Positions 2,417 through 58,720 of a DNA stretch of 64,000 nucleotides are shown one piece after another. This stretch comes from an uncultured Methanosarcinaceae archaeon. Lineage in GTDB: Archaea > Halobacteriota > Methanosarcinia > Methanosarcinales > Methanosarcinaceae. The DNA lies in assembly GCA_963847185.1 (NCBI GenBank), contig CAWJYV010000001.1:160001-224000 (forward strand), given 5' to 3'. Positions within the stretch are counted from its first letter, which is position 1. Every line of letters begins with the position of its first letter. A program made the translations under genes and the position numbers. The notes below the pieces were generated by a model. The model made no database searches. It was not told the origin of the DNA and saw only the letters and a program-made list of their open reading frames with translations.

Positions 2417-3899
2417 CTCCTGGACTTCCAGGTCTTTCTGGAGTTTCAGGATTCTCTGGACCTTTTCTTCCTTTCATTTGATTTTCATTTTCAGCTTTCC
2501 TGTCAGTTGTTCCGTCAGTTATTTCTGGTTTTTTTCGGGTTGAAACAGCCTCTTTTCTCCTTCTTGCAGTTCCGGTTTCAGTAGTTTCCTCGGATATGAT
2601 TTCATAAAGTAGAGCTTCTTTTCCTTCTTTTTTCCTGAGGATTCTGCCGAGGCGCTGGACATATTCCCTTTTACTGCCGGTACCGCTTGCTATAATCCCT
2701 ACATTTGCTTCAGGGACGTCAATGCCTTCATCGAGTACCTTTGAAGTAACCACAGCTCTGTAAGTTCCTGCCCTGAATTTTTCGAGAATGGAATTCCTTT
2801 CTTTTGCAGGCGTCCTGTAGGTAATTGCAGGGATTAGAAATTCCCTGGAGATTCGGTGGACAAGACTGTTGTGTTCCGTAAAAATAAAAGTCCTGTCTTC
2901 TTTATGGGTTTCCAGAATCTCTTTTAGCTTTTCAAGTTTTGAATCACTGTTAAAAGCAAGGTCTCTTGAAGCATTTCTTGCAAGGAGGGCTTTTCTGGCT
3001 TGAGGATCCCTTCCACTTTTCATAACCAGTTTCCGGAAGTCCTGTGGGCTTTTCATTATCATTCCGGTTTTCCTGAGATAATCAAGAAACACTGAATATT
3101 GCTTTTCATACTCTATCCGTTCCTCGTCCGTGAGTGCAGTAGCTATCCTTTTAATTCTGTAAGGGGCAAGATATCCACCTGCAAGTTCAGAAACCTGCTT
3201 TTCGTAAACCTTTCCTCCTACAAGTCTGTTAAGCTCAGAGTGAAGTTCGTCTTCCCGTTCGTAGGTGGCTGTTAGCCCAAGCCTGTAAGAGGCTGCGGAA
3301 AATTCGGCAATGCTTCTGTACCCGGCTGCAGGCAGGTGGTGAACTTCATCAAAAATAAGGAGGCCGAATCTATTCCCGAGAGTTTCGGCATGAATATAAG
3401 CAGAGTCATATGTAGAAACCGTTACCGGAAGAATTTTCTTTTCTCCTCCCCCAAGCTTTCCGATTTCCATAGAAAAGGCTTCTTCAAGCTGCTTTTTCCA
3501 CTGTTCGAGCAGGTCAAGGGTCGGGACAACCACAAGAGCAGGGGTATTGCAGCCTGCAATTGCCCTTATCCCAACAAGGGTCTTTCCACTTCCTGTCGGC
3601 AGGACGAGAACTCCCCGTTTCTCATTCTCCCCCCAGGCAATGAGAGCCTCTGCCTGGTAATCCCTGAGCTTGAGTTTCTGTCCTGAAGCTTCATATGCTG
3701 CTGCAAGATCCGGACAGGGGATGAGGTCAAGCACTTCGTCTTCAAACTGGATTTTAGAATTTTTTAAGTAGTTAACCGTATCTCTGTAATACATGGCTAG
3801 AGTTCTGAAGCTTCCACTTCTCTCGTCCCAGACTGCATTGGGAACTCTTACATTGCCCTGTATAAGCAAAGTCCCCCGCTTGAAGCTGATTTTGATCAT
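2394..3899 (-). CDS. xpb: XPB/Rad25-like SF2 helicase
   Basis: LRDYQ, PTGSGKT, DEVHH, LGLTAT, RED motif, QRLGR. Confidence 0.92.
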   Translation of the reverse strand: MIKISFKRGTLLIQGNVRVPNAVWDERSGSFRTLAMYYRDTVNYLKNSKIQFEDEVLDLIPCPDLAAAYEASGQKLKLRDYQAEALIAWGENEKRGVLVLPTGSGKTLVGIRAIAGCNTPALVVVPTLDLLEQWKKQLEEAFSMEIGKLGGGEKKILPVTVSTYDSAYIHAETLGNRFGLLIFDEVHHLPAAGYRSIAEFSAASYRLGLTATYEREDELHSELNRLVGGKVYEKQVSELAGGYLAPYRIKRIATALTDEERIEYEKQYSVFLDYLRKTGMIMKSPQDFRKLVMKSGRDPQARKALLARNASRDLAFNSDSKLEKLKEILETHKEDRTFIFTEHNSLVHRISREFLIPAITYRTPAKERNSILEKFRAGTYRAVVTSKVLDEGIDVPEANVGIIASGTGSKREYVQRLGRILRKKEGKEALLYEIISEETTETGTARRRKEAVSTRKKPEITDGTTDRKAENENQMKGRKGPENPETPERPGSPGGGSAANI

Positions 3900-6428: not shown

Positions 6429-7626
6429 TCATTCAATGATCTTTCTAGCCTCAATATAGTATCTTTTCTCGTTTTCCTTTCCCAGAGAAAATGACTTTCT
6501 TGGAAGGACACCCTTCTTTTTTATAAGAGAAAAAAATTCACTTTTTTTAAGGGAAGGAAGGAAGAAACCAATGTTCCCTTTCTCTTTTCCTAGTTTTTCC
6601 ACAATCCCAGGATCATGTTCATACTCAACTGAATAGTCATCAATAATCTCATCAAGAGTCTCTACTTCAAGGTCGTGTTTTGGATTCTCAAAGATCAGTA
6701 CACCGCACCTGTCTTCCGTGATAAATCCGATTGAATGACCGGTTGAAGAGCCGATATTTGATAGGTCTTCTGTTAAATTACAGGCTGGAAGTTCTATGAT
6801 CCTTGCATTGAATTTACTAAGAAGTTTCTCAGGTTCTACTTCCTTTACAACCCTGTGAATAGGCTCAAAAGTAAGGCCTGGATCATGAATGTTTACAAGT
6901 TCAACCATAGCGTACCTTGCAGGATGATTCCCAGGCACAGTTTTTTTAATCTTTTCCCAAAAACTTTTTGCTGCAGCAAGGCTATGATTTCCGTCACCAA
7001 CAAGAAGGAGCCCGAGGGCTTGAATCTTTTCCGAAATTTCTTTAATTATTTTCTCGTCACTGAGCTTATAGCCAGTGATATGGCCTCCTTCTTCCATCAG
7101 TTCAAAGTCGTAAACCTTATTGTCTACATATACAAAATCATGTATAGTTCCTGGGAATTACCTCGAATTCAGGGTCATTATATAATACCAGAATATGGGA
7201 AAGTTCTAGATCTGCGTTTTCTCTGATTCTTACTCTTGCAGGAAGCCTTTCTTTGATCGTTCCTTCAGTGGGCCGAATAAAAGAATCAGATCCGTTAAAT
7301 TCATATTCTTCGAGATCAATTGCAGCTACAAGGCCTGTTCTCTCATTGCCTGAGACAGAACGCTTTATAAGAATAAAGCTGGGGCCGTGGTCAGTAAGAA
7401 TTTTTTTGTAATTACTTATATTTTCATGGATCTTTTCTACTCTTTTTTCGTCTAAAGGAAGATAAATTTCCGGATAAATTAGGTTTAAAGCAGAAGGAGT
7501 ATTTCCAACAAATTCTTCAACCCTTTGCCAGTATTCTATATCCTGAGTGTGCTGATCGCAGGCAATTACTGCCCATTTTTCCCAATTATCCTTTGGAAGA
7601 AGAATGTGAGGGACGTGCAATATCAT
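6429..7626 (-). CDS. DUF1015 family protein, split by a +1 frameshift near 7153-7155
   Basis: WAVIACDQ and RPTEGTIKERLPARV in 7138-7626; GDGNHSLAAAK and LPRKSFS in 6429-7097; removing one C gives IPGTIHDFVYVDNKVYDFELMEEGGH. Confidence 0.85.
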
Positions 7627-7721
7627 GATTTATTAAAAAAAGAAAGAGGATATAAAGATTTCTGAAAATATCTTTTTAATATCAATTCCGGAAAATTCTC
7701 TCACTCAATTATGTATGAATA

Positions 7722-7842
7722 AAACTTACCGAAGTGAGATGCTTGCGAGATACTTGCTGCTTCATTTGAGTAGATTATTCTGCAGCAAACGAGGAGTGGC
7801 CAGTGCAGCCTGGGTGTGTCGGATACTTGGAGACACTAAGAT
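7722..7842 (-). ncRNA. Candidate sRNA with hairpins and an anti-SD-like CCACUCCUC linker
   Basis: GC-rich island in AT-rich intergenic DNA; stems GTGTC/GACAC and TTGCTGC/GCAGCAA; no ORF. Confidence 0.4.
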
Positions 7843-7874
7843 TATACTATTTTTGTGACTGTGAAGTCTATGTT

Positions 7875-8042
7875 GAAAAAACGTAGTATAAATAGCCTAG
7901 AGGCGCTGCATCCATTAACTGCATTCCCCAATACAGTTTCTTCGAAATATTATGTTCTCCAAATGTACTGTTTCGAAGATGGATCAGCGCCTTCCAGAGA
8001 TTTTTGTCAGGTGGCAGAACTCTCCATTTCACTTTCCAACTC
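7875..8042 (-). ncRNA. Structured RNA candidate, copy A (three-way junction)
   Basis: Homologous to 22585-22755; stems GGCGCTGATCC/GGATGCAGCGCC, TCTTCGAAA/TTTCGAAGA, ACTGTATT/AATGCAGT; ends at a T-run. Confidence 0.6.
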
Positions 8043-8206
8043 TATATATAACATTATATCATTGATATTTTAAATTAATTCTAGCAAAAATTTTTCTCAA
8101 ATAAAAAATATTTCGGCATAAAAAATTTCAAAGCAAGAGTACGGGCCTGCATTTTATATGGAAGTACTTTTAAAAATTACTTCCTTTGCATAGCTACGGA
8201 GAGTGT

Positions 8207-8330
8207 TCACTTCGCCACATCACATCCAGCGTTCTTCCGCGCATCCCTTGTTTCCAGGAACATTGTATACTTTATCGTATCCTTTCTTTTTCAAGATTGA
8301 GCTGTATACTGAAACGTCTGGAATTGTCAT
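8207..8330 (-). pseudogene. Remnant of a rhodanese-domain C-terminus
   Basis: SILKKKGYDKVYNVPG followed, after a frameshift, by ARKNAG. Confidence 0.4.
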
Positions 8331-8735
8331 AATAAACAACTACTTGAGACGAGAAAGATCAAAATATATCTGACAGTCTCTTTATATCTGACCAAACCCC
8401 GCAAACACAGTAAAAATTATTAAAATTCCCCCTAAATAATAACAGCGTACTTCATATGTTTTGAAAAATATCATCTTTACTGGAAAAGAAGTTAAAGTTG
8501 ATAATGATACTTATTAATGTGAATATAAATATAAGTAATAAAAATATAAATACAAGGTAGATATTATACAAGATAGTATACGCGTAAAAATTCAAAAAAT
8601 CTGGTACATTTAATCCGTTTCTTGGTTCACTATCTTTCGCAATCTTGATATATTGATAGGCGCATCCATCGTGAGGCTGAACTACTAAATTTAAAAAATC
8701 ATATTAATTATTTCTTCAAAAGATTAGAGTTTTCC

Positions 8736-20489: not shown

Positions 20490-21190
20490 GCGGACGGCCA
20501 CCCTACCTTAAAAGGTAGGGTATGCTTCGGGCCGTCCGCCGATTTCTGGGGAAGTTAGAAATCACTTAGTTTCAATTGTCCAGATTTCTTTATTCTATTT
20601 GATCTAATCTCTTTTTTTGGTTTTCCTTGGGATTCGTTAATATAATGCCTGATTGTGTCAGCAGTTACATTCCCAATTGATCTATAGAACTTATCACTTG
20701 ACCATAAACTTCCACCCCAGTATTTTTCCCTTAGTTCAGGATGAAGCTTAAATAATCTGTAAGAACTTCCTCCTTTTAGGTATTGAATTACTTTGGATAG
20801 TGAGGTGCTTGGATGGAATTCCAGAAACAAGTGCACATGATCTTCTACTATTTCCATGGCATGTATTCTATAGCCTTTCTCAGTACAAATGTTTTTGAAG
20901 ATTGATTCGCAATTCTTTTTAACTCTCTTGTTGTAGAATATTTTGAATCTGTACTTAGGCGCCAATACGATGTGGTAGGTGATCTGACCATTGCCATGGC
21001 TAAAACTACGCAATTCCAATGCTTATCACATCCTAGCCATAGGTGGCTGCAACCGCCTGTGGTTATGGTGTCAAAAAACATTATATTGAAAAAAGTGACG
21101 ATTTTAGATTATTAAGGTGAATGTCGAAAAACCTGCGAGGGTTCACTTCATCCCAGACTTAAAAGTCTGGGCATTCGTGACCCTCCGCGC
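20490..21190 (-). mobile_element. IS200-type element (tnpA only)
   Basis: Subterminal hairpins CCCTACCTT-AA-AAGGTAGGG and CCCAGACTT-AA-AAGTCTGGG flanking tnpA. Confidence 0.85.
20555..21019 (-). CDS. tnpA: IS200/IS605 Y1 HUH transposase
   Basis: YHIVLAPKYR, DHVHL, KGGSS, LWS, IRHYI. Confidence 0.92.
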   Translation of the reverse strand: MELRSFSHGNGQITYHIVLAPKYRFKIFYNKRVKKNCESIFKNICTEKGYRIHAMEIVEDHVHLFLEFHPSTSLSKVIQYLKGGSSYRLFKLHPELREKYWGGSLWSSDKFYRSIGNVTADTIRHYINESQGKPKKEIRSNRIKKSGQLKLSDF

Positions 21191-21356
21191 TCCCATAGCA
21201 GTAAAATCCATAAAGACACATTCGTACAGCCTTTCAGAGGACTAAAGAAACAGGAGAACTTAAGCATATTAAAGTCTAATCTGTTTTTTGAATTCTCCGA
21301 AATGATAGGGATTAGCCAAAAAAGGCTGACGAATGAGTCTAACCTACTTTTACTAG

Positions 21357-21471
21357 AGGACTTATGCGGTTGGAATGAAAAATCAATAGCATTAAACCGT
21401 CAACTGTCCAAAGTGCGTATTAATCACGATGTCTGATGCGCTTGATTTTGTACTTCAAGTGCGTAAGTCCT
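21357..21471. mobile_element. MITE, AGGACTTACGC family
   Basis: TIRs AGGACTTATGC / GCGTAAGTCCT; homologous copy at 50178-50293. Confidence 0.8.
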
Positions 21472-21581
21472 AAAGAGAATGCAAATTTAGATATTTTTAC
21501 CCAAATGTATAATTCAGGTAGTTTTGAGACAGCCTAAATATTAAAGTTTCAATTCTGAGCTGGCGGAAAATAATTCTCTAT

Positions 21582-21842: not shown

Positions 21843-22165
21843 ATTATCTTATTAAGCTTTGTTTATATCATATCTCAAAATATAAATAGACCTATATAAG
21901 AAAAAGCAGGAACAATAATATGTGCATTATAGAATTATAAAGCATACTTGTGCTTTGATATTGATATTGGCGAAAAATACATGAAAGCTAACACTTCATT
22001 TAGAGGACTTCTTTTAGAGAAGCTATACAATTACTACCCGATAGGATAGAAGAAATAAGCCCCTTCTTTTTAAAAAACATGAATCAAAATTACGCTGGCG
22101 CACCTCGCTTCAAGCAAGGGATTGTTTGTGCCACCTCTTTCGCTTCTATCCTTTCATACACTTAA

Positions 22166-22267
22166 CCACGCACACATACCTAGAAGCCACGTACATGGCC
22201 AGGGCTATCGCTCATAGCCAGATGGACTAATATATCCCGGACAGCTCCACAATAAATTGAAAAGAGT
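22166..22267 (+). repeat. Dispersed ~100-bp repeat, copy 1
   Basis: CCACGCACACATACCTAGAAGCCACGTAC...GCCAGGGCTA...TAGCC.ATGGACT.ATATATCCC. Confidence 0.85.
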
Positions 22268-22584
22268 TTAATGAATAATTTAAATCAGCTTAGAAGTAGA
22301 TGGTAGAGTTTTGAGTCCCTATTCTCAAACCCTACCTGCGATCCAACCCAAAGATTAAGAGGAAACCCTATTTCTCTTAATCTGGACATTTATAAGGTCT
22401 CGGGGATATATATCATAACCGATACAAAAGATTGTTTCTGATTTGAACTTTAAATATAATTGAAAAATTATAGTATATTGATAATTTTAATATCCTTAAA
22501 ACAAAATGAATTAGACATTTTTTCGATTAAATACAATTTTTGATATGATTTATTATAAGTAATTTATCCAATTAGTACATGCTG

Positions 22585-22755
22585 GAGTTGGGAAATAACT
22601 GGGGAATCATCTACCATAATGAAAGAATCGCCTGGGATTGCTGATCCTTCTTCGAACCAATATGCTTGGGGGAGCTTAATGGTCGAAGAGACTGTATTGG
22701 GGGATACAGTGAAAGGATGCAGTGACCCTGGGCTTATTCTTATGTAGCTCTTTTT
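22585..22755 (+). ncRNA. Structured RNA candidate, copy B (three-way junction)
   Basis: Homologous to 7875-8042; TATA-like TTTATTATA upstream, T-run downstream. Confidence 0.6.
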
Positions 22756-23015
22756 GCTGCCCTTTTACCATATTTTTTTTCTTAATGTCTTAGTTTTAAC
22801 TTGAATGAGTTGGCTCTGTTTTATCAAGGTTTTTTGACAAAGACTCTCATGAGTACAGGAAATTCAATGTCTAAAACTCTACTAAATATAAACCTGCTCC
22901 TGATTTTGCAGATTAGAAACTTTGTTTCCAAAGAAATATTAGCCGATGAAAAAGATTCTAAAATGGGGTTATTTTACAAAATCCCGTAGAATATCTTGTC
23001 TCTGGGGAAGCATAG

Positions 23016-23426
23016 ATGTCGGGTATAGACACTGATGAATTTATGTCGATTTCTTTTGATTTACAAAAAATAGCCTTGCTCCTTGTCATAATCGGGTTTA
23101 TCATAATAAGGATAGGTAAATTAAGTAAAGAAAAATTGAAAAAACATGATATGATATTCACATCAGGATATTTGCTAGTAGTCTTATCCGTTCCATATAT
23201 GATTAATTTTGTATACGACGCCTTAGTTTCTCAATCAATTTCTCCTTTGATTTTCATCCATTCCTTGATAGGAGTTGTGGTTTTATTTCTGGGATTTATA
23301 GTTGTAATTAACAGACGCAAATGGAAGATAAAGAGAAGATGGAAAACTAAAGCAAACATGCAAATTCTTTTAGTTTTATGGCTGGTAAATTTTATATTAG
23401 GGACTTATATGGTCTTATTTACTTAA
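23016..23426 (+). CDS. Four-TM membrane protein (DUF420-like)
   Basis: Four hydrophobic helices, KKHD and IHSLIG His motifs, C-terminal LG.Y. Confidence 0.7.
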   Translation: MSGIDTDEFMSISFDLQKIALLLVIIGFIIIRIGKLSKEKLKKHDMIFTSGYLLVVLSVPYMINFVYDALVSQSISPLIFIHSLIGVVVLFLGFIVVINRRKWKIKRRWKTKANMQILLVLWLVNFILGTYMVLFT

Positions 23427-23476
23427 TGGAAAACAAAAATATAACAAATCTTAACTTTTACAACTTTATTGGCTGA

Positions 23477-23560
23477 CTAGAAGCAACGTACAAAGGCCAG
23501 ATATATTGCTCGGGTAAAATGGACCAAATATATGCCGCAAGTCTCCATGATGCAATTTAA
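23477..23560 (+). repeat. Dispersed repeat, copy 2
   Basis: 48 bp identical to copy 5. Confidence 0.85.
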
Positions 23561-23810: not shown

Positions 23811-25008
23811 GGTCGTGTCCCCAAATCATTGACTTAATTTTATATAATTTTGAATCTATTATTATTTGGGGGTATTGAAATCACTTCTGAAATCGATTTT
23901 TCACAATTTTTTTGCTGGAACAAAGATTGCCCTGATTATGGAATTAAAAATCAGGGGAATATAACCTTTAAAGAGAGATATGGTAAAAATAATCATGTTC
24001 TTCTTAAATGTAAAACCTGTAATCGTTGCTTTAGTGAAACAAAAGGTACAGTATTTTTTGGACTTGATACTCCTGAGGAAGAAGTTCTTAGGACACTGGC
24101 TATGCTTCCTGAAAAAGGAAGTATTCGTGGAGTTGCAAGAGCTACTGGGCATGATAAAGACACAATTTGTAGATGGCTCGAAATTGCAGGAACTCATTCA
24201 AAAGAAGTTACAGATTATTTCCTCATAAATCTTAATCTTAAGAGAGTAGAGGTTGATGAGATCTGGTCATATATAAAAAAAGCAAAAAAATGTGACTGAA
24301 GAGGATTCTGAAGAGTATGGTGATGTATACTCACTTACAGCAATCAAAAGTGACTCAAGATTGCTCCTTTTCCATCATGAAGGAAAACGTAGTACAGAGG
24401 ATGCTATAGAGTTATTTAACGGAGTTGAGAAGATGCGTTCCGCATCTTCTCCCATTCCTGTATTTACCTCGGATGATTGGGATGCCTTTGAAGAAGGGCT
24501 TATAAATGTTTATGGTAAAATCGAGTTACCACAATACAAAGGTATTGGGAGAAGACCACTACCGAGACTGGTTCCGCTTGACGATTTAAAATATGTCAAG
24601 GTACTAAAGAAAAAGGTAAAGAACTACGTAGTTGAAACAATTCAATGTATCATTTTTGGAGATCCTAAAGAAATATTCGAAATGCTTGGAGCTAATTCGG
24701 AGAGTTATATTGGCACTTCATATGCAGAAAGGATAAATCTTACGATCAGGACATCTCTTGCAAGATTTATAAGAAAAGGGATGAATTTCAGTAAAACAAT
24801 GAAGATGCATCAGAAAGCTTTTGATTTATTTCAGGCGTGGTATAACCTTATAAAACCTCATAAGTCCCTAAAATTAGAAATAAACTCTGGAAATAGAAAA
24901 TGGTTCCAAAGGACTCCAGCAATGGCAGAAGGAATAACTGATCACATATGGAGTTTAAAGGAATTACTGACGTTTAGAGTGCCTGTTCAATAACTTGGGG
25001 ACACGACC
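23811..25008 (+). mobile_element. Complete IS1-family element; two ORFs 23850-24299 and 24292-24993 joined by an A-run frameshift
   Basis: TIR GGTCGTGTCCCCAA, 8-bp target duplication GGGGATTG (23803-23810, 25009-25016), Zn finger, HTH, VDEIWSY, TSDDW, ERINLTIR. Confidence 0.93.
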
Positions 25009-58649: not shown

Positions 58650-58720
58650 GCTGAGATGATGGGAAGGTCACGCAGTGGACTGCAGATCCATTAATCCCGG
58701 TTCGAGTCAGGGTCTTAGCT
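58650..58720 (+). tRNA. tRNA-Cys(GCA), atypical or degenerate
   Basis: Acceptor GCTGAGA/TCTTAGC, anticodon arm GTGGA-CTGCAGA-TCCAT, T loop TTCGAGT, U73; mismatches in D and T stems. Confidence 0.75.

Follow-up and report, generated by a model that had tools for sequence, protein, structure and literature searches.

Multicopy families of sibling sRNAs are known from bacteria, as exemplified by LhrC1-5 of Listeria and by CsrB/RsmY/RsmZ. In archaea, to our knowledge, structures have been established for few regulatory RNAs, and large paralogous families of them are almost absent. No other methanogen serves as well as Methanosarcina as a genetic model, and Jager et al. in 2009 reportedly compiled by deep sequencing a catalogue of sRNA candidates for M. 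mazei. In the same organism, sRNA162 and sRNA171 are intergenic sRNAs of ~190 nt restricted to Methanosarcina, the former with three stem-loops, a 39-nt single-stranded linker and only two copies, according to the parts of their published description considered here (PMC3510493). M. mazei sRNA154 and sRNA41 present loops that are anti-ribosome-binding-site, i.e., pyrimidine-rich, as described in a review (PMC5867862).

The RNA described here departs from these systems in its architecture and in the number of its genes. It was found at two loci, A and B, in a stretch of 64,000 nt (the window) from an uncultured archaeon of the Methanosarcinaceae, whose genome amounts to 4.04 Mb in 10 contigs and is 99.8% complete. 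The original prediction had pointed to these loci as a homologous intergenic pair on opposite strands, and a DNA search finds them in place: positions 7889-7990 and 22640-22734 share ~77% identity over ~95 nt (E 2.6e-12). We consider, with a probability of about 0.72, that A and B are independently transcribed, non-coding, structured small RNA genes of ~160-190 nt, which would function, in the inferred part of this reading, as trans-acting scaffolds; the family membership, the fold, the strand, the lack of a conserved ORF, the promoter and terminator signals and the phyletic range have been computed. The features of copy A are as follows.

7883..8043, minus strand: copy A RNA (covariance-model match, 135 bits)
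7979..7998, minus strand: closing stem P1, 5' strand (MFE structure and covariation)
7940..7978, minus strand: hairpin 1 with UCUUCGAA stem, its apical part diverged in copy A (MFE structure)
7917..7938, minus strand: hairpin 2, ACUGUAUU-GGGG-AAUGCAGU (sequence and MFE structure)
7896..7915, minus strand: closing stem P1, 3' strand (MFE structure)
8044..8143, minus strand: conserved upstream (promoter) region (conservation and promoter profile)
8066-8074, minus strand: TATA box TTTAAAATA, -31 to -23 counted from the first conserved base
7876..7881, minus strand: T6 run, archaeal terminator-like, starting +2 after the RNA (sequence)

Those of copy B are the following.

22584..22745, plus strand: copy B RNA (covariance-model match, 176 bits)
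22623..22648, plus strand: closing stem P1, 5' strand, including AAGAA and GCCUGGGAUUGCUGAUCC (MFE fold)
22649..22689, plus strand: hairpin 1, apical loop UUGGGGGAG (MFE fold)
22691..22710, plus strand: hairpin 2, apical loop UUGGGGGAU (MFE fold)
22714..22741, plus strand: closing stem P1, 3' strand (MFE fold)
22484..22583, plus strand: conserved upstream (promoter) region (conservation and promoter profile)
22550-22561, plus strand: TATA-like TTATTATAAGTA, -34 to -23 counted from the first conserved base
22751..22780, plus strand: T-runs, T5 at 22751-22755 (+6 after the RNA) and T8 at 22773-22780 (sequence)

Each of the two copies folds on its own into the common three-way junction that had been proposed for them. 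The MFE is -56.6 kcal/mol for copy B (z = -3.96), a value that none of 200 dinucleotide shuffles equals, and -46.2 kcal/mol for copy A (z = -3.29), for which one of 200 shuffles is as good. In the closing stem A and B have different sequences and still pair, as the original prediction had it, but the stem extends to ~20 bp and is thus longer than claimed; the pattern of hairpin 2, ACUGUAUU-GGGG-(G/A)AU(A/G)CAGU, is present in both copies in the form first described. When applied to 12 paralogues, RNAalifold returned a three-way junction of 27 pairs, 13 of which show compensatory (double) changes. With 47 matches from 25 genomes, 94.3% of the 1255 pair cells are standard and 16 of the 27 pairs have compensatory changes; for the 95 matches that stem from named records the two values are 93.6% and 21 of 27, helix 5 being biased in this set by the pattern used for fetching the loci. 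None of 500 shuffles of the 47-sequence alignment reaches any of five measures, a count that is a strong indication rather than a probability because the 47- and 95-sequence alignments are model-fitted and their sequences are kin or paralogues. Sliding the 3' partners by 1-3 columns brings pairing down to 30-55% in the 47-sequence alignment and to 30-56% over the two alignments, against 94%, so that in both the suspected covariation exceeds all 500 shuffles and all slid controls. There is also a paired deletion, in member C4, where AUCC and its partner GGAU are both missing.

The same alignment bears on the orientation of the RNA. G-U cells number 244 and A-C cells 23 among the 47 sequences, and pairing amounts to 94.3% on the proposed strand versus 76.7% on its complement. 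Because G-U pairs far outnumber A-C pairs, the RNA strand is fixed as minus at A and plus at B, the orientation that had been assigned at the outset. The junction strands measure ~1, 1 and 4 nt, the last of which is GAAA-like, and both apical loops read UUGGGGGA. The 5' part of the RNA, G-rich and ~45-60 nt long (GGAGUUGGGAA...CUGGGGnAUC), includes the motifs UUGGGAA and CUGGGG and is without supported structure; a small 5' hairpin, which would place GGGAA in its loop, pairs in 74% of cells, a level reached by 18 of 500 shuffles. Tracts of three or more G average 4.5 per RNA, compared with 2.4 in shuffles.

Copies A and B have several siblings in their own genome. A DNA search with copy A identified seven places at E <= 5.4e-5, two rounds of nhmmer brought the number to 13 copies plus two promoter-only pieces, and 12 of the 13 paralogues were used to build a covariance model of 165 positions and 27 pairs, R1, which again retrieved exactly 13. 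The notion of a multicopy structured ncRNA family has survived the computational tests proposed with it, except that the copies are 13 and not two; A and B truly belong to a multicopy family of genes for small RNAs that fold and do not code for protein. The conserved unit spans ~260 nt, of which ~100 nt constitute an AT-rich promoter region and ~160 nt the RNA, with conserved ends that begin at GGAGUUGGG and finish at GGGCUUCUUCUU.

Searches with R1 found the family in every genome of the genus that was scanned and in those of one sister genus. Among relatives, 24 of 24 genomes of the same genus had 1-19 matches each, and none of 16 genomes of other families had any. At the family level, the genus was positive in 34 of 34 genomes and the sister genus in 6 of 6, as opposed to none of 110 genomes across 14 other genera of the family; at the order level the corresponding figures were 12 of 12 and 4 of 4, with 0 of 32 in the rest of the family and 0 of 102 in five other families, all these searches having used samples in which absence means not found among the genomes searched. 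Copy number varies from 1 to 19 per genome and lies between 4 and 19 in most. In a collection of species representatives, a 20-nt pattern of hairpin 2 occurs in 74 stretches, the named ones being nearly all from Methanosarcina, and R1 applied to the loci fetched in this way gave the 95 matches mentioned above. Hence the family is confined, among the genomes searched, to Methanosarcina and one sister genus. Four bacterial MAG contigs carrying the 20-nt pattern proved to be chance matches of 17-20 bits. A separate case is a full-length RNA copy (108 bits) at positions 3640-3799 of a 4.4-kb contig assigned to an uncultured Gammaproteobacteria MAG (L127, CAZALZ010000047.1), which is probably a mis-binned fragment of Methanosarcina.

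For some copies, other genomes contain orthologues in a matching context, with flank identities of ~75-96%. For example, copy A matches locus L073 with flanks that are 94-96% identical, and the copy at C8:191804 matches L060 at 75%. Methanosarcina sp. Mfa9 has six of the RNA genes in tandem, spaced by 450-600 nt, each with its own promoter before and T-rich sequence after. The neighbours of the 13 copies are heterogeneous: PAS/histidine kinases, a CheB-CheR fusion, PKD-domain proteins, DUF1015, a PAPS-reductase-like protein, fibrillarin/Nop5, UbiA and transposases of the IS200, IS1 and IS66 types. Downstream of copy A, the DUF1015 gene is split in two ORFs on the minus strand (6429-7097 and 7138-7626, matching profile positions 13-154 and 175-323) and is probably frameshifted or broken. 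After one RNA copy, at C10:733322-733400 (plus strand), a (TTCTTA)n microsatellite extends the conserved CUUCUUCUU tail.

The signals expected of a transcription unit surround the RNA. The AT-rich upstream stretch and the downstream T-run that had been reported are present at both A and B, and between genomes the upstream 100 nt are conserved to the same degree as the RNA. Counting from the first conserved base, a TATA box (TTTAAAATA or TTTAATATA) occupies -31 to -23, with its centre near -27, and is followed by a non-conserved spacer, a position that fits archaeal promoter geometry as generally known; judging from these motifs, each gene appears to be served by a promoter of its own, whose distance from the conserved 5' end is fixed. 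In the own genome the promoter profile matches 13 places, comprising 11 upstream of RNA copies, the deleted copy on C6 and one zinc-ribbon gene. The deleted member (C6:48521-48612, minus strand) lacks its internal part, so that the promoter is joined directly to the closing stem's 3' strand (CAGCGCCTCTTGGCTTTTTCTC). At the other end, each gene has a pyrimidine tail (GGGCUUCUUCUU) and then an oligo-T terminator: a run of five or more T occurs within 100 nt downstream of 39 of the 47 copies (median +18) and, in a larger sample, of 77 of the 86 copies without a zinc-ribbon gene behind. The shared promoter suggests that the genes form one regulon.

Transcript data were taken from Logan contigs of soil and sludge metatranscriptomes, which have no ends or strand and possibly include DNA. 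No RNA run contains more than 7% of the sampled words of 22000-23500. Four contigs of 48-158 nt from the soil metatranscriptome X1 fall on 22592-22742 and none on its flanks, which, with mixed communities as the source and DNA carry-over possible, is a weak hint of expression; one of the four has a single difference over 111 nt. Copy B had no coverage in runs X2, X3 or X4.

Neither locus corresponds to an RNA family of Rfam. With the whole window, Rfam 15 reports only a tRNA at 58650 at gathering cut-offs; at E <= 10 it adds two chance-level rows within 22100-22900 (scores of 15 and 13.5 bits where the cut-offs are 100) and nothing within 7750-8200, and the RNA itself has no match at either level. 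A tRNA or tRNA-derived origin was discarded with ARAGORN, which found 0 genes in 7500-8400 and 22100-23000. We found no description of this family in the literature searched, though an unnamed listing in the M. mazei catalogue is possible; members may stand unnamed among the sRNA candidates of Jager et al. 2009. The family is absent from Rfam 15 and appears to be a new one of a kind already known, that of sibling sRNAs, and it is unusual in its linkage to a second RNA and to a small protein.

The second RNA, M2, is also multicopy and lies divergently from copy B.

22288..22383, minus strand: M2, 96 nt (conservation and fold)
22406-22414, minus strand: TATA box of M2, GATATATAT, -31 to -23

M2 consists of two hairpins with AAUAGGG loops and has compensatory changes; RNAalifold energies (-21.7 for the minus strand versus -17.7) and G-U pairs alike favour the minus strand. 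It has no Rfam match. There are ~11 copies in this genome, a tandem trio included, and M2 stands beside four of the 13 junction-RNA copies, B among them. In 33 of 97 distinct copies of the junction RNA it is found upstream on the opposite strand, the 5' ends of the two RNAs being a median of 209 nt apart, and in many genomes it forms back-to-back dimers separated by 5-6 nt. Its range (31 of 34 genomes of the genus, 6 of 6 of the sister genus and 0 of 110 others) matches that of the junction RNA. Metatranscriptome contigs of X1 and X3 cover 22282-22383, with a depth of 587 in X3, again lacking strand and possibly deriving from DNA.

The linkage with a protein raises a question on the nature of the whole family: Could the element be, in essence, a cis-acting 5' leader of a zinc-ribbon gene, for instance a site for the gene's own product, with the free copies as duplicated leaders of little or no function? 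In 17 of 103 distinct copies from other genomes, an ORF for a zinc-ribbon protein of 46 aa (MKHLKICPKCH...YWTKVGTARLDSIMIY) follows on the same strand at a median distance of 60 nt (range 50-104), and a run of five or more T intervenes in only 5 of the 17, compared with the 77 of 86 remaining copies that are followed by one. Because the same gene family follows with few T-runs between, these linked members look cis-linked, and they are probably 5' leaders rather than free-standing genes. Judged by coordinates, no fewer than 17 genomes share this arrangement, the sister genus being represented among them, the same type of promoter precedes a zinc-ribbon paralogue that has no RNA, and one X1 metatranscriptome contig, without strand, runs from the 3' half of the RNA 88 nt into a spacer of the zinc-ribbon type. 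All this favours a leader. Against its extension to the entire family, 86 of 103 copies, and 12 of the 13 in this genome (A and B among them, the linked one being at C10:298614-298775), are free of such a gene, and yet the unlinked copies retain the fold via compensatory changes together with promoter and terminator; the six-gene array of Mfa9 has no zinc-ribbon-family ORF, and folding nine leaders composed of RNA plus zinc-ribbon gene gave no consistent pairing of the ribosome-binding site. Moreover, the protein family is present in 13 of the 16 genera of the family, far more widely than the RNA (2 of 16), and is therefore older than the RNA. We thus judge improbable that the RNA is fundamentally a leader, and a cis-regulatory leader or riboswitch has been rejected as the class of the whole family, given that the same downstream gene is found in only 17 of 103 copies and that the neighbours of the 13 copies differ.

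The protein itself reaches no Pfam or NCBIfam family over cut-off and is called only 'hypothetical' or 'Zn-finger nucleic acid-binding protein' in the source records. Its AlphaFold model has a pLDDT of 71.8, and Foldseek against the PDB gave no match at E <= 0.001, the weak matches (E 0.4-3) being with generic zinc ribbons such as TFS4, Rpb9/C11 and Trm112-like proteins. The linked gene of this genome is at C10:298421-298558 (minus strand), with paralogues at C10:83285-83416, C8:746278-746409 and C7:394851-394973. Two paralogues here, as well as two loci elsewhere, have ACG in place of ATG with a good ribosome-binding site before it, which could mean either that translation starts at a near-cognate codon or that the gene has decayed. 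Right behind the zinc-ribbon ORF, in this genome (C10:298325-298473, minus strand) and in one other only (L030:518-657), the RNA is repeated in part, with hairpin 2 and the 3' arm of the closing stem.

A less probable alternative to small RNA genes, which we consider very unlikely, is a mobile or selfish repeat, either MITE-like or the remnant end of an insertion sequence, the stems of which would be DNA inverted repeats with transcription as an incidental feature. The element is indeed short, dispersed and multicopy, like MITEs and other short non-autonomous repeats, with an inverted repeat inside and a number of copies (1-19) that varies between species; copies lie in repeat-rich regions near transposase genes of the IS200, IS1 and IS66 types, segments of ~600 nt containing both RNA genes have been duplicated at 80-95% identity, and an internally deleted copy exists. 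However, the stem arms vary between copies and stay complementary, unlike an end recognised by a transposase, and the G-U pairs that are conserved would turn into A-C mismatches if the element acted as DNA or were read from the opposite strand. The absence of TIRs that had been asserted for A and B is borne out, since no inverted repeats occur at either locus apart from the stems themselves. The unit includes a TATA box at fixed distance and a terminator, which differ from what MITEs contain, copies have no adjoining transposase gene in common, and no target-site duplications were seen around them, as judged by eye. Some copies are syntenic across genomes, with the flank identities given above. 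Viral contigs searched with two patterns contained no full match, a single 20-nt chance match being on a giant-virus contig. A MITE was therefore rejected: the sole inverted repeat is a covarying stem, and the flanks of the copies are unrelated just outside promoter and terminator.

The vicinity of copy B contains repeats of its own. An IS200-type Y1 transposase is encoded at 20555-21019 (minus strand), within an element of 730 nt that is 96% identical at C1:115855-116583, and another transposase is encoded in two overlapping ORFs at 23850-24993 (plus strand), the second of which (24292-24993) matches IS1 (DDE_Tnp_IS1) and has a related copy on C10; neither directly adjoins the RNA genes. Positions 22160-22290 hold a repeat of ~125 nt with roughly 30 copies of 75-88% identity, mostly on C1, C4 and C5, which includes a small hairpin (GGCTAT-CGCTC-ATAGCC) and in which no terminal inverted repeat was found. 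A dispersed repeat of ~120 nt, with ~25 copies on seven contigs at 72-80% identity, occupies 21347-21474.

That the element is an spRNA or a dual-function RNA with a small protein as its product is hardly credible: M. mazei sRNA candidates often contain translated small ORFs, according to excerpts of one report (PMC11456600), copy B has a 42-codon ORF (22619-22747) and a frame that is open throughout can be found on the opposite strand in 33 of 47 copies, but the ATG of the B ORF is absent in most copies, copy A breaks the frame with TGA and TAA and also lacks the ATG, any alignment-anchored frame stays open in 12 of 47 sequences at most, peptides from the same hairpin 2 come from three different frames across copies, and indels are not multiples of three. 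The interruption in copy A had been noticed in the original prediction, and homologues retain the pairing but not the ORF; a conserved reading frame, sought on both strands of the 47 sequences, was not found.

Returning to independently transcribed small RNA genes, how might they work? The three-way junction could serve as a scaffold that presents repeated G-rich motifs, and the RNA would then act in trans. Such repeats would fit either multivalent pairing or multivalent protein binding. Pairing with pyrimidine-rich partners is, in our opinion, a possible mode of action though less likely than not, and the binding or titration of a protein is only slightly less likely; a decoy role is conceivable. 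Complements of the loop motifs occur 99-388 times outside the family in the own genome, near or moderately above chance expectation. One conserved member probably acts, in addition, as a 5' leader for the gene of the 46-aa zinc-ribbon protein. A bolder scheme, which we deem unlikely, would join junction RNA, M2 and zinc-ribbon protein in a single ribonucleoprotein circuit specific to Methanosarcina, with the G-rich loops (UUGGGGGA and AAUAGGG) as putative protein sites. These loops would bind the zinc-ribbon protein or a different RNA-binding protein, which the many RNA genes would titrate, and the leader copy would close an autoregulatory loop. If true, archaea would have their own version of the CsrA/CsrB logic, assembled from unrelated parts.

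Independently of such schemes, a well-supported structured RNA, with 1-19 copies in each Methanosarcina genome searched, has been missing from Rfam. It is accompanied by a strongly conserved promoter, the linked M2 RNA and a linked small zinc-ribbon protein. The covariance model permits its immediate annotation and may explain unnamed entries in the M. mazei sRNA catalogue. The promoter that the copies share suggests one common signal, and the linkage of RNA and protein provides a testable hypothesis on post-transcriptional control in archaea.

In comparison with known systems, the architecture recalls the three-way junctions of Rfam, namely the purine riboswitch and the hammerhead ribozyme, in which a closing stem and two hairpins likewise depart from one junction. 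The present family differs by having no CUGANGA core and by its short junction strands, and loop kissing is impossible in it because both loops are G-rich; the anatomy of the junction and the lack of an Rfam match exclude hammerhead and purine riboswitch. With the sRNA162 and sRNA171 of M. mazei, as portrayed in the parts of their description considered here, it shares restriction to the genus, paralogues with conserved promoters and proximity to transposase genes, and it is set apart from sRNA162 by the three-way junction and by its 4-19 copies in most genomes (PMC3510493). Like sRNA154 and sRNA41, it belongs to the structured sRNAs of Methanosarcina, for which hairpin loops are the functional surface in those two cases. 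Its loops are purine-rich and resemble ribosome-binding sites; given the anti-ribosome-binding-site loops of sRNA154 and sRNA41, they are therefore of opposite polarity, and neither of these RNAs is described as multicopy in that review (PMC5867862).

A sponge of the CsrB/Rsm type could be envisaged from the G-rich loop motifs, but it was rejected for want of a partner gene: a search of this genome, 99.8% complete, gave no match to CsrA (PF02599), while the controls were found. The family is archaeal, has a three-way-junction core and carries the G-rich motif UUGGGGGA instead of UCCC or the GGA bound by CsrA, and in these respects it is distinct from LhrC and CsrB. In its organisation it resembles the sibling sRNAs LhrC1-5 and CsrB/RsmY/RsmZ (compare PMC6262261, PMC13350326): several to many paralogous genes per genome, some of them in tandem, each gene with its own promoter and terminator, and a short motif repeated in loops and single strands.
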